From the NCBI GenBank assembly GCA_050290185.1, contig JBNKHE010000002.1, forward strand, positions 192,001 through 256,000: a stretch of 64,000 nucleotides of DNA, given 5' to 3'. Made by a program: the position numbers. Positions within the stretch are counted from its first letter, which is position 1. The number at the start of each line of letters is the position of its first letter. This stretch comes from Pontiella sp. (GTDB taxonomy: Bacteria > Verrucomicrobiota > Kiritimatiellia > Kiritimatiellales > Pontiellaceae). Of the stretch, positions 24,001 through 30,000 are shown piece by piece.

Positions 24001-27000
24001 GCTTCGATAATGATGCGGTTCTCGGTTCCCAGCGCCGTCGTCAGCTCGGCACGCAGTTCATAGATGGGCAGTTTCTTCGGATCCATAGGCGGGCGGTTAT
24101 AACGGAAACATCCCGGACAGGAAAGCCCTGCCTAGACTGACTCCTCTTCCTCGCCTACATAGAACCAGTCACCCTTTCGCTTTCTGAAAACGGAGCATTC
24201 GTGGTGACGACCGGGACCGGAGTCTGTCACATATTCGGCCATGAACTCCACGCGACCCGTTTCATCCGAAGCGGAACCGGCCTCCTTTGCGATGACGTGC
24301 AGCTTGATCCATTCAACCTGCCGCATCCAGCGGCGGATAGAATCGGCCAGATCCTCTTCCCGCGCGGAGGGATGGGTGGTTCTTACCAGATAGTCGACCT
24401 TCTTCATGACATAGGCGGTATAGCGCGAGCGCATCAACTGCTCCGCCGTTGGTGCCTTGCGCCGACCGGCGACGATTCCACCGCAACAATCGTCAAATAA
24501 AGCGCCACTTCCACAGGGGCATTTATCAAATTTCATACGACTACTCTTTAGATTTATTGATCGTCTGCCATTGGGGTCCAGCCACCACCGAGGGCTTTGT
24601 ACACGCGGACCGCGTTGCGCGCCACATTGCCTTCACTTATAGCGAGCTGTTCCTGAAAGGCGAGCAACGAGCGCTGGGCATCCAGCACCGAGGTAAAGTC
24701 GGACAAGCCGTTGTGATACCGGTCTTGCGCCAGCGCCTCCGCTTCGCGCGCGGCATTTACGGCTAGTCCGAGCGCTTCGCGTCGCTCGATTTCCTTTTGG
24801 TAGTCGGTCAATGCATCGCGCACTTCCTTCACGGCATTGAGCACGGTCGATTCATAGGCAATCAGCGCCTGCTCCTGCCGGGCTTCCTGCACCTTGATGT
24901 TGTTGCGGATCGATCCCCAGTGGAAAATCGGCCAGCTAACGCCCGGAGCAATGACGTAGCTTTCGCTACCGGATTCGAAAAGGGTCGACGCCTTGAGCGA
25001 TTCCAGCCCGATGGATCCGTTCAGTGAAAACCGCGGATAGAGCTCTGCCACGGATGCCCCGACCAGCGCGGTCTGCGCGGCCAGCGCGCGTTCGGCACGG
25101 CGCACATCGGGACGACGGCGCAGCATATCGGCAGGGATCCCTTCGAGCATCAGGCTGGACTGCGGCACCCCGCCATCGGCAGTAAGCTCAAGCGTTCCCG
25201 GCATTTCGCCAATCAGGACTGACAGCGCCGTGCGGCTTGATGCCAGTCCCGCTTCAAGCGCGGGCACGGTCGAGCGGCTGCTTTGATAGTTGTAGCGCGC
25301 CTGCTGAACCACCAGCTCATTGACCAGACCGGCCTTCAGGCGGGATTCAAGAAGCTCAAGGGTATCGCGCTGGACTGCAAGGTTGGAACGCGCAACATCA
25401 AGACGATACTGGTACGTGCGCGCCATCAGGTAGGCCTGGGCGGTTTCGGCCGCGATGGATACCTGCACCGAAGCGAGGTCCAGTTCCTTTGCCTCAAAGT
25501 CCGCAGTTGCATACTCAAGTCCGCGCCGCACGGCGCCGAACAGGTCGATCTCCCAGACGGCGTCAAATCCGCCGCTGTAGAGCGTTTGGGGATCGAAGGC
25601 CCCCGGCGGGGAAAATCCCGCCCCAAACTGGCTGGCATTTTCAGACTGCTTGAAGCGGCTTACACTTCCGGTCAGATCCACCTTGGGTCCAAGTGCGGCC
25701 TTCGCCTTGCCAAGCTTTGCGCGAGCCTCCCGCACACGCGCTACGGCACCCTTGAGATCAAGGTTCTTTTCCAGCGCCTTTTCAACCATCCTGATCAGCA
25801 CCGGATCGTTAAACTGATTCCACCATTCGACCGTATCCACGCTTTCAGCCTGCACACCCGGAATTTCCGGCAGCTCCGGTTGTTCATAGTCCGGGCCGAC
25901 CGACATGCAACCACCCATAAAGAACGGCAACAGCAGGAGCACCAGCAGATTCAGCTTGTCCTTGCCGATACGCAGACGGATGGAGTGCCCTTTTTCGCGC
26001 AGTGTCTGGAACAGAACAAAGAGCGCAGGAACCAATATGATGCCGAAAAGTGTCGCGGCCATCATACCCCAGAAAACGGTGGTACCGATTGCTCGGCGTG
26101 CATTTGCTCCGGCGCCAGTGGCGATCACCATCGGGAAGATCCCGAGAATAAAGGTGAAGGCGGTCATCAGCACGGCACGGAAGCGCTGGCTCGCGCCGTC
26201 GGCGGCGGCATCCACAATCGAAAGCCCCTCCTCGCGCCGGGTCTTTGAAAACTCGACAATGAGAATGGCATTTTTGCTGGCGAGACCGATCAGCAGAATC
26301 AAGCCGAGCTGGGCGTAGATGCTGAGCGACATTTTCAGCACAAACAGGGCAACCAGCGCGCCGAATGCAGCCACGCAGGTCGACAGGATTACCGGAATCG
26401 GAATCGTCCAGCTTTCATACTGGGCGACGAGGAACAGGTAGCCGAACACCAGTGCCATCACAATCAGAATGGTGGAACCACCGGCCGCTTTGGCTTCCTG
26501 ATAACTGAGTCCGGACCATTCAATATTGTAGCCCGGCGGCAAGGCGGTTTTCGCCAGCTCTTCCACTTTTTCCATTACGACGCCGGAGCTGAAGATTGGT
26601 ATCAGCATCGCCGTAATGGAAGCGGTCGAAAACTTGTTGTAGCGCTCAACCGAACGGGGCGCGAGTATCGGCCGCACCTCAAGCAGACTGCCCAGCGGTA
26701 CCATTGCGCCGGTGCGGCTTTTGACGTAGAGCTTTTCAATGTCATCCTTCCGGTCTCGGAACGGTCCGTCCGCCTGAACGGTCACATGGTTTACCTGACC
26801 GTCAAAATTGACGTCGTTCACGTAACGCGATCCAAAGTTGTTCTGGAGCGTGGCGAAAATATCGCTGACCTCGACATGCATCAGCGCAGCCTTCACACGA
26901 TCGACCTCCAGCTGAAGGTGCGGGGTGTTCGCCGCATAGCCGCTGAAGGCAAACATGGTTTCAGGCATCATGTTGAGCTGCATCAGGAAACCCTGCATGA

Positions 27001-30000
27001 CGCCACTGAGTTTCTGGGGATCGCTGTCGCCCAGAGCCTGCAGGCGGATGTCCAGCCCGTTGCTAACCCCCAGGCCCATGATAGCGGGCGGAGCAAACAG
27101 GTTGATCTGCGCACCGGGCTCCATGGCCAGGCGCCCCTGCAGTTTCTGCAGAATGGCATCGAGCTGAAGTTCCGGGCTGCGGCGCTTGTCCCAGCTATCG
27201 AGACCAAACAGGAAAAAGGCGACGTTTTCGCCGGAACCACCGATAAAAGAGAATCCGGTTACTTCAACGGTATAGGCGACGCCGGGTTCCTGCCCCAACG
27301 GGGAAATGACCCGCTCCAGCATGGCCTCGGTCCGTGCGCGCGTCGCACCTTCCGGCAGCTGCAGCGCACCGAAGATAACGCCCTGATCCTCTTCCGGAAG
27401 GAAGGAGGTCGGGTTCATCGCACTCAGAAAAGCGGCTCCTCCACCCACGCCGAGAAGAATCACGGCGGTCAGGATCAATCGGCGCGACAGCCCCGTCGCG
27501 GCGTTGACATAATGACCGCGCACCCGGTTGAGCCCCGTATTAAACCAGCGCAGCGGGCCGTGCTGTTTCGGCTTAATCACGCGCAACAGTACAGCACAGA
27601 GCGCCGGACTGAGCGTCAGCGCATTGACCGTGGAAAAGAATACCGCCGCCGAAATGGCCACGGCAAACTGCTGATAGATCTTCCCAACGATGCCGCTGAC
27701 AAAACCGATCGGCACAAAGATGGCGAGAAGTACCAGCGTCGTTGCAATAACCGCACCGGTCACCTGCTCCATCGCTTTGATGGTGGCGGCCTTATGGTCG
27801 AGCCCCTCGTGTTCCATCAGGTGCAAAACGCGCTCGACAACAACGATGGCATCGTCGACCACCAGCCCGATGGCCAGCACGAGACCGAACAAGGTAAGCG
27901 TATTGATGCTGTAGCCGAATGCGATCAGTACCGCGAAGGTGGCACAGAGTGAAACCGGGATGGTCATGGCCGGTACCAGCGTGGCGCGCCAGTCCTGCAG
28001 GAATACGTAACAAACCACCACGACCAGAAGAACGGTCAGTAGCAGCGTGGTGACAATGTCAATAATACTGGCGCGCACAAAGTTGGTTGCATCGTACGGC
28101 AATATGACTTCCATGCCTTCGGGGAACTGCGTAGAGAGCGAGTTGAGCTCGGCGCGCAACGCGTCCATGGTGTCGAGCGCATTGGAACCGGCCGAACGGC
28201 TGACGCCAATGGCGACCGCGGTCTTGCCGTTGTACTTCGCGCTGAACAAATAGTTATCCGCCCCCTTCTCAATCCGGGCAACATCGCTCAAGCGAACCAC
28301 GGCCCCATCCGCACCGGTCCGCACAATAATATCCTCGAAACGATCGATTGTGTTGAGGCGGCCCTCCGATTTCAGCGTGTACACCATCTGCCCGTTGCCC
28401 GGCGCACTGCCGACGGAACCGGCCGAGGCCTGAATGTTCTGGCCGCGGATCGCGGCAAGGACATCGTCGGAGCTCATTCCAAGCGCGGCGAGGCGGTCGG
28501 CATCCATCCAGACGCGCATGCTATAGCGAGGCGCGTAGACTTGCGCGCGGCTGACGCCGGGAAGGCGTTCGAGCGCTGGCTTTATCACCTTGTAGGTGTA
28601 GTCGCTCATAAACAGCTCGCTCAGCGATTCGTCGGGCGACTGCACCATGACGAACCCGAGCATGTCGGCCGATTCGGTCTCAACGGTGACGCCCTGTTGC
28701 GTTACTTCAACCGGAAGCAGCGGTTCGGCCTGTGCGACGCGGTTCTGCACCTGCACCTGCGCAATGTCCGGATCGGTACCGACCTCGAACGTTACGGTCA
28801 GCGCATAGCCACCGGAGTTATCAGAGGTGGACGACATATAAATCATGTTGTCCACCCCGTTCACCGCATCCTCGATCGGCGCGGCAACGGTGTCGGCCAT
28901 CACCTCGGCGCTGGCTCCCGGATATGCGGTGCGCACGACCACCTGCGGTGGCGTTACCTGAGGAAACTGCGCAATCGGCAGCGCACCAATGGCAATGATC
29001 CCCGCCAACGTCAGGACAATGGAAATCACCCCTGCCAGTCGCGGGCGTTCAATAAAGACTCGTGAAATCATGTTCAGCCCTCCGAAGGAATCACCTGGAC
29101 GGTTGCTCCGGGGACCGCTTTCTGGACCCCGTCAACCACAATACGATCACCCGGTTCTAAACCGGACAAAATCGCGACATCCATTTCAATCTGCCCGCCG
29201 GCTTCAACCCGGGCCATGCCGACGGTTCCCGCCTCGTCGACGGTCAGCACATACGCTCCGTCACCATCCAGCAACAGCGCGCGCTGTGGAATCTTGATGC
29301 CTTTCTCTCCGGCAGGATTGCTCAATCGGGCCGTAACGTATCCACCCGGCACCAACAGGCCGTCCGGGTTGTCGAAGAGGTAGCGCACGGCAATGGTGCC
29401 GGTTGACGGATTGATGACGTTGTCGTCGAAATCCTTTTTTCCGATGTTTGAAAGAAGCGATCCATCGGGCAGAACAACACGGGCCTCGAGTGCGGCGGCA
29501 TCGCCGGCCAGCTCGTGGCGGCGCATGGCCAGAAACTCGCGGTCCGTCTGCGAAAAGACCACACGAATCGGATCAAGCTGCACAATCCGGGCTAGCTCGG
29601 CGGTGCCCGGCGTAACATAGTTGCCCTTTTTGACCATCGCAGTACCGATCCTCCCGCTGATCGGCGAGCGGATTTCCGTGTAATCCAGATCTACTTTCGC
29701 TAGGTCATAGGCGGCCTTGCCGCGCAGGAAATCACTCTCGGCCGCTTCGAGATCAGAGGCCGACACGCTGCGGGTATCTGCTTTCTTCAGGCGCTCATAG
29801 CGTTTTTTCGCGCAGATCATTTCGGCCTCCGCCGCATCGGCGGTCGCCTGATAGGCGGAATGGTCGATCGAAAACAACAGATCCCCCTCTTTCACAAGAG
29901 AGCCTTCGGTAAAACAGACCTGCTCAATCCGGCCGGACACTTCGGGGCGAATAACCACTTCCTGCAACGGCTCGACACTTGCGATATACTCATCTGCGGA

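Follow-up and report, generated by a model that had tools for sequence, protein, structure and literature searches.

A Pontiella gene joining an RND permease to an outer-membrane factor through a putative internal lipoprotein signal peptide

Known efflux assemblies and the Pontiella locus

Tripartite efflux pumps such as MexEF-OprN, MexAB-OprM and CusCBA combine a periplasmic adaptor, an RND permease and an outer-membrane factor (OMF). Their operons follow the logic regulator, adaptor, RND, OMF, with separate genes for pump and channel and an N-terminal signal peptide on the OMF. Two membrane-complex subunits in one ORF are found in FbcH of Bradyrhizobium japonicum, reportedly a cytochrome b/c1 precursor and a membrane polyprotein split at an internal signal peptide; signal peptidase I is said to make the cut there and the two products to remain at the inner membrane. 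Among efflux proteins, PMC4446572 describes fused dimeric adaptors, such as DSY0927 of Desulfitobacterium hafniense, and gives tripartite pumps a 3:6:3 stoichiometry, which fits 1:1 synthesis. DSY0927 joins two proteins of one kind within a single compartment and so needs no processing.

How does the Pontiella locus compare? The window, the 64,000-nucleotide stretch of a Pontiella sp. contig analysed here, encodes the same three components in the same operon logic as the classical pumps, but pump and channel share one ORF, with an internal signal peptide placed behind 12 transmembrane helices. The features are as follows.

30184..30831, minus strand: 215-aa regulator of the TetR family, opening the gene block (Pfam TetR_N 14-60 and CecR_C)
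29074..30165, minus strand: periplasmic adaptor (MFP), 363 aa (TIGR01730 RND_mfp 44-358, 234.7 bits; Pfam HlyD_D23)
24554..29071, minus strand: RND-OMF fusion ORF including RND permease, junction and OMF, 1505 aa, ATG start, stop codon 24554-24556
26006..29071, minus strand: RND permease domain, residues 1-1022 (PF00873, TIGR00915, AcrB alignment, hydropathy)
25955..26005, minus strand: basic loop, residues 1023-1039, n-region of the proposed internal signal peptide (DNA and translation; probably cytoplasmic)
25910..25954, minus strand: hydrophobic stretch and lipobox, residues 1040-1054, proposed TM13/h-region (translation, hydropathy, AF2)
25907..25909, minus strand: TGC codon of Cys1055, which would be the lipidated +1 residue at which the released OMF begins (invariant column C96, alignment A1)
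24557..25909, minus strand: mature NodT/OprM-type OMF, residues 1055-1505, 451 aa (TIGR01845, OprN match, AF2 model, Foldseek)

The preliminary description had placed a complete RND permease and a complete OMF in a single 1505-aa frame, with the adaptor and TetR genes upstream on the same strand, and the ORF, Pfam and NCBIfam analyses agree. The long ORF has no internal stop codon, and the adaptor's stop abuts the RND start codon (gap of 0). The adaptor has an N-terminal membrane anchor and no cysteine and is therefore not a lipoprotein.

In the permease half, ACR_tran (PF00873) matches residues 2-1022 (1014.7 bits, profile 1-1021 of 1021) and TIGR00915 residues 3-1024 (1083.6 bits, cut-off 940). 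Residues 5-1022 align with residues 4-1030 of AcrB chains (E about 5e-235), and this half can be aligned end to end with both AcrB and MexB. Its hydrophobic stretches, the last at 994-1021, are consistent with the 12-TM AcrB layout, and we take AcrB topology to hold here, placing the RND C-terminus in the cytoplasm. In the channel half, Pfam matches OEP in two stretches (best, 1314-1495), and the NCBIfam model TIGR01845 outer_NodT covers residues 1050-1497 (model 5-460 of 460, 335 bits, cut-off 210); similarity to OprN reaches E 1.9e-71. The AF2 model (mean pLDDT 83.7) finds OprN (TM 0.82-0.83), OprM and CusC by Foldseek, and the predicted structure confirms an OMF fold. Residue 1 of mature OprN and of mature CusC, as crystallised, falls one residue away from Cys1055. 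Elsewhere in the genome, OEP occurs in four other frames; two of these have a lipobox signal peptide of their own, and in the remaining two the signal peptide is of the signal-peptidase-I-like kind.

Conservation of the fusion and its junction

A homologue search returned 1813 hits. All of the best 120 carry PF00873 and PF02321, and 112 of these are at least 1380 aa long, the remainder being contig-end fragments; their named sources include Tichowtungia aerotolerans, Kiritimatiellales MAGs and Desulfobacter postgatei, curvatus and latus. The pattern C-x(1-5)-GP-x-[YFW] occurs at the junction in 111 of the 120, and in the other nine a G/T-G-C can be seen by eye after a hydrophobic stretch, with the variants GPDH, GSDY, GPNH or a longer spacer. 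The earlier homologue search is thus reproduced.

Could the long ORF nevertheless stem from an error of assembly or sequencing, or be a pseudogene left by a recent inactivating fusion? We found nothing in favour of either, and their probability is close to negligible. All 120 best homologues are fused, including those of cultured Desulfobacter, and several fused homologues come from contigs that are closed or of megabase size (Tichowtungia, 3.88 Mb; B12222, 4.43 Mb). Contigs from three runs of one study, two of which may equal the source sample, cover the junction without an inserted or deleted letter. A variant allele that co-occurs shows 20 differences over residues 985-1032, 18 of them at third codon positions, which argues against a pseudogene. 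On these grounds both explanations were rejected, in keeping with the earlier view that the fusion is not an assembly error. Selection maintains the gene as a true fusion of two subunits of one tripartite efflux pump.

By DNA and translation, the junction runs from TM12 (to residue 1022) through the loop and a 15-residue hydrophobic stretch, ending in FMGG, to Cys1055 and MSVGPDY. An AF2 helix at model residues 81-93 corresponds to residues 1040-1052, with modest confidence (10-residue block means of 57-69 over model residues 71-100). The last eight loop residues have a net charge of at least +1 in all 132 fused homologues, and the cysteine is invariant in a 79-row alignment.

A locus in a Pontiella MAG (L032; P0130, P0132, P0134) has the same gene order, TetR-MFP-RND-OMF by Pfam, with all genes separate and an OMF 63% identical to that of the fusion. 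Its OMF product begins MRKLGLLLLPLLAANG followed by CMTVGPDY, an architecture shared with the fused junction, and the junction thus has a true N-terminal lipoprotein signal peptide as its homologue. Unlike in the fused gene, the stop codon of RND and the ATG of the OMF overlap (ATGCGTAA), and an AAGGAG Shine-Dalgarno (SD) sequence lies 9 nt upstream of the OMF start. A small indel would convert one state into the other.

Signal-peptide features were compared between 132 fused and 95 split proteins. The median length of hydrophobic stretch plus lipobox is 15 in fused and 14 in split proteins, net charge is +3 against +2, and Gly stands at -1 in 131/132 against 90/95. A PROSITE-type lipobox pattern matches 126/132 against 78/95, and the residue tallies of neither set contain Asp at +2. 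On each feature measured, the fused junctions match the signal peptides of their split relatives. From the cysteine to the WWxxFxD motif the median is 28 residues in fused proteins (26-46, n=128) and 39 in split ones (n=106); the fused proteins have no added linker.

An IQ-TREE phylogeny of 62 OMF domains needs six changes between the fused and the split state, each of them imposed by starred branches. Within the main fused clade sit two split groups (100/97 and 98/93, both starred), and the L032 OMF is nested in the fused clade. FastTree on 235 rows likewise gives six changes. Fused and split forms have thus interconverted at least six times, on a tree that is well supported.

Proposed processing of the chain and competing explanations

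Since the junction resembles an ordinary lipoprotein signal peptide, the chain is most likely cut in two by the lipoprotein machinery. The 12 RND helices would insert into the inner membrane with a cytoplasmic C-terminus, the basic loop would remain inside, and the 15-residue hydrophobic stretch would span the membrane as a 13th segment and act as the export signal for the 451-residue OMF part. Lgt would then place diacylglycerol on Cys1055, behind FMGG, as in any prolipoprotein, Lsp would cleave the Gly1054/Cys1055 bond and Lnt would acylate the new N-terminus. The freed lipoprotein would be sorted to the outer membrane and fold into the trimeric channel, while the "signal peptide" would stay on the RND part, forming TM13 at its C-terminus. 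Being made as a single chain, pump and channel would be produced 1:1, matching the 3:6:3 assembly. As in DSY0927 (PMC4446572), gene fusion would set subunit stoichiometry in an efflux assembly. As in FbcH, an internal signal sequence behind a polytopic domain would export the second part and be cleaved; unlike in FbcH, the site is a lipobox, a target of signal peptidase II, and the outer membrane would be the destination of the second product.

The genome encodes lspA, lgt and lnt, as had been stated. Among 232 naive N-terminal lipoprotein candidates, 10 also use x-G-G/C (for example, MKLPIMILTSALLLGGC). As to the predicted sorting to the outer membrane, the Pfam model for LolA has no match in the genome but matches only 5 of 14 control genomes, and a full-length LolCE-like match scores 307.6 bits, under the curated cut-off of 362.

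We consider it probable that the fusion is made as a polyprotein and cut at an internal type-II signal peptide, the reading of the preliminary description, which every in-silico test that we ran supports. It is strengthened by homology of the junction to the split signal peptide, by the matching signal-peptide statistics and by repeated fusion and fission, as well as by junctions that offer no internal start (below), by the missing linker and by convergent fusions that keep the lipobox. An uncut chain, with the 13th helix holding its OMF at the inner membrane and a non-canonical function or none, is unlikely. In that case the conserved lipobox would be a relic of ancestry or would be lipidated without being cut. 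In favour of this reading, the literature searched holds no documented case in which Lgt or Lsp acts at a lipobox some 1000 residues along a polytopic protein, nor a precedent for internal Lsp substrates, and annotation pipelines name such proteins single permeases. Tethering, however, fits poorly with the geometry: Cys1055 lies within one residue of mature OprN and CusC residue 1, which in solved OMFs we take to sit at the outer membrane ("palmitoylated OprM" is a PDB title among the Foldseek matches), and with the periplasmic distances that we assume, about 28 residues are too few to reach there from the inner membrane. Nor does it explain why Cys and the -1 Gly persist while adjacent hydrophobic residues vary, or why convergent fusions keep a lipobox, and at least six fused/split replacements are hard to square with different end products. 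Cutting by another protease (signal peptidase I, a periplasmic or a rhomboid-type enzyme) is very unlikely. P0283, a divergent fusion without a junction cysteine, reads ..FFSLQNSNA/MASETS, which resembles a signal-peptidase-I site, so a junction could be cut without a lipobox; in the Pontiella gene's own family, by contrast, +1 Cys and -1 Gly are kept, the NodT lipoprotein model extends through the lipobox (model position 5 onward), and split orthologues are plain lipoproteins.

The OMF might instead arise mainly from an internal translation start, with the read-through fusion as a minor by-product, which we regard as distinctly unlikely. For the Pontiella gene the earlier suggestion of an additional start fails: ATG, GTG and TTG are absent from residue 1014 to 1043, loop included, and the next candidates, GTG1044, TTG1048 and ATG1052, fall within the hydrophobic core, so that a product begun there would lack an n-region. 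The suggestion stands for three of 27 distinct fused junctions with DNA, those of L025, from a Pontiella MAG, and of L028 and L030, both of the Desulfobacter type (..REKMYVVRNR..). There an in-frame ATG 23-27 codons before the cysteine is accompanied by an SD-like 4-mer, so a separate OMF could be made, which in the Desulfobacter type would begin MYVVRNRWTTKNISVLLVLLLPVIMTG/C. Some in-frame ATG, GTG or TTG lies at -15 to -32 in 13 of the 27, but the other 14, the Pontiella gene included, have none there. Moreover, the SD-like strings come from conserved R-E-K codons, and a loop Met occurs in 32 of 132 fused proteins, at scattered positions. Split loci, by contrast, have an ATG at -18 to -28 in 7/7 and a strong SD in four.

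If the polyprotein reading is correct, the fusion represents a so far undescribed way, within the literature searched, of building tripartite efflux pumps. That literature contains no description of pump and channel built as one lipobox-joined chain, and the system may be the first of its kind, a status that rests only on these null searches; transporter databases such as TCDB lay outside their scope. As the fusion also occurs in cultured strains, processing is open to testing there.

Fusions in other lineages

Other RND-OMF fusion families were found with P0245 as query, in Lentisphaeraceae, Ca. Scalindua and Planctomycetota. Like the Pontiella gene, P0245-P0284 combine ACR_tran and OEP in a single ORF with an MFP gene upstream, and they include the 1590-aa "acriflavin resistance protein D" of Ca. 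Scalindua japonica. Unlike the Pontiella gene, they belong to a different RND subfamily, have a shorter loop and show unrelated mature N-termini (CESQE.., CKS.., CVNHQ..); the OMF half of P0245 itself (G370) is 33% identical to that of the Pontiella fusion. A junction lipobox is present in 40 of the 43 proteins of at least 1400 aa in these families, and P0283, without the cysteine, shows that it is not universal at fusion junctions. The Lentisphaerota and Planctomycetota fusions are separate origins: RND-OMF fusion arose several times across Kiritimatiellota, Lentisphaerota and Planctomycetota; Desulfobacter received it by transfer. Its spread is wider than first noted from Kiritimatiellales, Tichowtungia and Desulfobacter.

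Pump and channel in one reading frame

As the preliminary description held, the gene under study joins an RND permease (the AcrB-type inner-membrane pump) to an outer-membrane factor (OMF, NodT/OprM type): a single frame of 1505 codons opens with ATG and contains no internal stop. Its neighborhood reads as follows.

Window 24554-29071 (-): fused gene; permease to residue 1022, loop 1023-1039, hydrophobic stretch and lipobox 1040-1054, OMF from Cys1055
Directly upstream of the fused gene (-): RND adaptor (MFP), whose stop abuts the RND start
Upstream, in the same strand block as the adaptor (-): TetR regulator
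Window 24132-24536 (-): YchJ-like protein of 134 aa with an N-terminal SEC-C motif, whose start lies 17 nt downstream of the fused gene, both on the minus strand

HAE1 RND permeases have twelve transmembrane helices, two large periplasmic loops, and cytoplasmic termini, as seen in the AcrB structures. In the fused gene, Pfam PF00873 matches residues 2-1022 over its entire profile (1-1021 of 1021, 1014.7 bits), the NCBIfam RND permease model TIGR00915 scores 1083.6 bits on residues 3-1024 against a curated cutoff of 940, and solved AcrB chains (4-1030) align with residues 5-1022 at an E value of about 5e-235. Hydrophobic stretches at 9-37, 330-500 (several), 524-554, and 860-1026 (several) reproduce the AcrB pattern, from which helix count and sidedness are taken, and the loop after the last of them is strongly basic. 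Rather than ending as a stand-alone HAE1 permease of about 1030-1050 aa, the chain continues for 483 residues into the OMF. This second half holds two OEP repeats (Pfam) and matches TIGR01845, the NodT OMF lipoprotein model, on residues 1050-1497 (model 5-460 of 460, 335.1 bits, cutoff 210). For residues 960-1505, AlphaFold2 (mean pLDDT 83.7, pTM 0.74) predicts a TolC/OprM fold in the OMF half; a Foldseek search with the resulting model matched OprN (E 2.8e-28, TM 0.82-0.83), together with OprM, OprJ, CusC, CmeC, and MtrE.

Could the fusion be an assembly error? The preliminary description had excluded one, rightly: in one study, three sequencing runs yielded contigs that cover the junction without an inserted or deleted letter, and two of these runs may be the source sample. 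Run X4 carries a second allele of window 25946-26147 (residues 985-1032), with 20 substitutions in 202 nt, no gaps, and 18 of the 20 changes in the third position of a codon; the sample behind that run therefore also contains a second, closely related strain whose frame is fused in the same way. RNA run X22 covers only window 26163-26395, read from a relative (10 differences); the junction lies outside this segment, and the run is uninformative on expression. The closest genome records are Pontiella MAGs at 91% identity, and the organism is therefore a Pontiella-like member of Kiritimatiellales.

The conservation claimed for the fusion holds as well. When residues 960-1300 were used as the query, both Pfam domains were present in all of the best 120 matches, 112 of which are at least 1380 aa long. 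Fused homologs among them come from Tichowtungia aerotolerans (a 3.88-Mb contig), Kiritimatiellota strain B12222 (4.43 Mb), and cultured Desulfobacter postgatei, D. curvatus, and D. latus. In a 401-genome sample of the phylum, OMF matches with at least 50% identity are all either part of an open frame of roughly 1500 aa or located at the end of a contig, and the next tier, at 46-49% identity, is split, with separate RND and OMF genes. Among the best 150 OMF relatives in a search of 1.84 billion representatives, only two full-length fusions (proteins P0105 and P0400) and a few fragments were present. Judged from these searches, the arrangement is rare overall.

Shorter close matches that resembled split genes were mostly rejected as such; P0125-P0129, P0131, P0133, and P0136-P0144, for example, are contig-end fragments of fused proteins. 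Conversely, three apparent fusions, at loci L018 (genome G230), L019 (G365), and L024 (G110), were rejected because the length of the frame there comes from GC-rich read-through ahead of an ordinary split OMF gene. Each of these OMF genes has its own ATG, preceded by a strong Shine-Dalgarno (SD) sequence at L018 and L019; none was detected upstream of the L024 gene. In GC-rich relatives, where the frame stays open for hundreds of codons upstream of a split OMF, open-frame length alone wrongly suggests fusion. A fused-gene fragment on contig JANQGB010001406.1 (locus L029, 1689 nt) has a Phycisphaerae MAG as its listed source; given how short the contig is, it may represent a binning error and not a further phylum.

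The junction and its split counterparts

Type II signal peptides combine a positive n-region, a short hydrophobic h-region, small residues at -1 and -2, and Cys at +1 (the PROSITE PS51257-type pattern). The same layout occurs at residues 1023-1054 of the fused protein: a loop with six K/R and two D/E is followed by 15 uncharged residues ending in M-G-G, by the lipobox Cys (Cys1055), and by MSVGPDY, which includes the x-GP-x-Y motif expected of an OMF lipoprotein. The Cys is residue 1055 of 1505, far from the N-terminus of the precursor. By its sequence, the junction is expected to work like a type II signal peptide, non-canonical in its location. An x-G-G-C lipobox also occurs in 10 of 232 naively selected ordinary lipoprotein candidates of this genome. 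The comparison with the signal peptides of split OMFs is given below.

Junctions of fused proteins compared with signal peptides of split OMFs
Property; fused (n=132); split (n=95)
Median distance from the last charged residue to the Cys; 15 (range 13-22); 14
Median net charge over the preceding 8 residues; +3 (+1 or more in 132/132); +2
Gly at -1; 131/132; 90/95
PROSITE-type lipobox pattern; 126/132; 78/95
Asp at +2; absent from the residue tally; absent

By these measures, the constraints on the junction appear equal to those on real signal peptides. In a 79-row alignment the junction Cys is an invariant column, and the hydrophobic residues around it vary. Residue 2 of the crystallized mature chains of OprN and CusC aligns with S1057, which puts residue 1 of both chains no more than one residue from Cys1055. 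Genes for Lgt, LspA, and Lnt are present in the genome, as had been reported. The Pfam model for LolA gave no match in this genome; the same model finds LolA in only 5 of 14 control genomes, and the result is no evidence of absence. The best LolC/E-like frame (contig C3, 153286-154503) is full length and scores below the curated cutoff.

Where did this segment come from? Three stand-alone OMFs, P0130, P0132, and P0134, are 455 aa long, share 63-64% identity with the fused form, lie on contigs of up to 93 kb, and start with MRKLGLLLLPLLAANG, which runs directly into CMTVGPDY. At L032, a split locus in a Pontiella MAG, the Pfam order of the operon (TetR, MFP, an RND of 1042 aa, OMF) is that of the fused locus; the OMF start codon, an ATG, shares bases with the RND stop (ATGCGTAA) and has AAGGAG 9 nt before it. 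The RND tail, which ends in EKKGDKFHA and a stop, and the OMF signal peptide that follows align with the fused junction, and a small indel would therefore interconvert the two arrangements. On this alignment, the fused junction is by descent a lipoprotein signal peptide.

Exchange of arrangements and wider occurrence

An IQ-TREE phylogeny of 62 OMF domains (35 fused, 27 split) requires six changes between the fused and split states, all forced by starred branches (bootstrap range 6-6), with gain and loss of fusion indistinguishable on the OMF tree by itself; a FastTree of 235 rows also requires six. The main clade of 39 rows (99/94, starred) mixes 32 fused and seven split forms. A split group (P0145, P0146, and P0152) is the sister of fused P0029 (100/97, starred), the Pontiella split group is nested in an 18-row clade (98/93, starred), and the fused forms at L016, L022, and L023 are placed among split OMFs. 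On these trees, fused and split arrangements have replaced each other repeatedly, which, whatever the direction, is expected if both yield the same mature proteins.

The Desulfobacter fused proteins (P0041, P0044, and P0051) form a group (100/100, starred) within a clade of Kiritimatiellales sequences (98/93, starred). This nesting suggests that the fused operon moved horizontally between phyla into Desulfobacter. The Desulfobacter-type loci are:

L030: Desulfobacter curvatus DSM 3379
L037: Desulfobacter latus
L028: Desulfobacterales MAG

Further families of RND-OMF fusions are independent of this one. In genome G370, from another family of the phylum, a frame with an MFP gene upstream (L017:951-5606, (-)) encodes P0245, an RND-OMF fusion of 1551 aa whose junction reads SEKFHAKKIALVSLVLFSLLIVS followed by CESQE. 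A search with P0245 as the query brought up roughly 40 further fusions (P0246-P0284), each 1520-1700 aa long, from Lentisphaeraceae, Ca. Scalindua (including Ca. S. japonica), and other Planctomycetota. A PROSITE-type lipobox is present at the junction in 40 of the 43 P0245-type proteins of at least 1400 aa, and the mature N-termini are unrelated. Of the three misses, P0272 still reads LSG before its Cys, and no junction lipobox was found in the stretch of P0284 that was searched. P0283 (1570 aa) has no junction Cys and reads FFSLQNSNA/MASETS, a signal-peptidase-I-like site (slash); here signal peptidase I may free a channel of the TolC type, which is not a lipoprotein, from a polyprotein.

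A proposed route from one chain to two proteins

For the intrinsic efflux of drugs and toxins, diderm bacteria rely mainly on tripartite RND pumps. How are the amounts of pump and channel matched, and how do the two meet across the periplasm? Both questions are debated. We think it probable that the fused gene encodes a polyprotein cut by the Lgt/Lsp pathway at its internal lipobox. With the RND C-terminus in the cytoplasm (the AcrB topology, which the basic loop fits), the hydrophobic stretch would cross the membrane and export the OMF part. Lgt would then lipidate Cys1055, Lsp would cut directly before it, and Lnt would acylate the new N-terminus, after which the lipoprotein would move to the outer membrane and the pump would retain a C-terminal 13th segment. 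One chain cut in two would mean that pump and channel are synthesized 1:1. Such synthesis would match the assembly stoichiometry of 3:6:3 given in PMC4446572.

Might the OMF instead be translated from an internal start? In the fused gene, codons 1014-1043 include no ATG, GTG, or TTG, the candidates further on fall within the hydrophobic core, and the OMF half lacks a start and N-terminal signal peptide of its own, the signal-peptide-like segment lying at 1023-1054. DNA was available for 27 distinct fused junctions; in 14 of them the interval from -15 to -32 contains no start codon. An ATG is present there in seven, and ATG plus an SD-like 4-mer in three (L025 and the Desulfobacter-type L028 and L030); the SD-like string in these three comes from conserved R-E-K codons. 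Split loci, by contrast, have an ATG at -18 to -28 in seven of seven cases and a strong SD in four of seven. Internal initiation is not the general route, then, and is possible at L025, L028, and L030.

Alternatively, the fusion might stay uncut and tether the OMF to the inner membrane. The distance from the Cys to the first conserved OMF motif, gauged by sequence spacing, has a median of 28 residues in fused forms versus 39 in split ones; the fused spacing is shorter, with no added linker. In solved OMFs the residue that corresponds to the Cys carries the lipid that anchors the protein at the outer membrane (one entry is titled 'palmitoylated OprM'). About 28 residues cannot span from the inner membrane to that anchor, and an uncut tether is therefore disfavored. 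Cleavage by another protease, which would also separate the two halves, is unlikely for the fused gene's own family, given the invariant Cys and the Gly at -1. Processing by Lgt and Lsp is the reading we retain.

On balance we also favor a broader proposal, held somewhat less firmly: in PVC-group bacteria, and by transfer in Desulfobacter, an efflux machine that spans the envelope would be made from a polyprotein divided at an internal lipobox. Lgt/Lsp would here, for the first time in a natural protein, process an internal site behind 12 membrane helices and leave the signal peptide as a 13th, and the several independent origins would make the arrangement a recurrent solution for 1:1 co-production of pump and channel. 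The closest known mechanistic precedent is the Bradyrhizobium cytochrome b/c1 polyprotein (FbcH type), which is reportedly cleaved at an internal signal peptide; here we infer two products from one chain from sequence. The passages covered of the literature searched in full text, which includes a 2021 Chem Rev tripartite-pump review, a 2015 adaptor review, a 2022 signal-peptide review, and a 2026 Chem Rev review, describe neither a natural RND-OMF fusion nor processing by signal peptidase II at an internal lipobox, and the fusion passages of a 2016 survey of outer-membrane pore families name no RND-OMF case; TCDB and InterPro architectures, where the fusion may already have been noticed, are outside this scope. 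The parts are known; the way of making them would be new.

If the proposal is correct, it adds an assembly route for tripartite pumps, perhaps with co-localized assembly of pump and channel, and the retained 13th helix might act as a built-in accessory helix of the pump. The substrate range of Lgt and Lsp (an antibiotic target) would extend to internal sites in polytopic proteins. For annotation, entries of about 1500 aa that carry the name 'efflux RND transporter permease subunit' conceal an entire outer-membrane channel, and signal-peptide predictors that consider only the N-terminus miss such fused proteins. Cultured carriers (Desulfobacter curvatus DSM 3379, D. postgatei, D. latus, and Tichowtungia aerotolerans) make the idea directly testable. 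In the Desulfobacter sublineage, an in-frame ATG lies 27 codons before the Cys.
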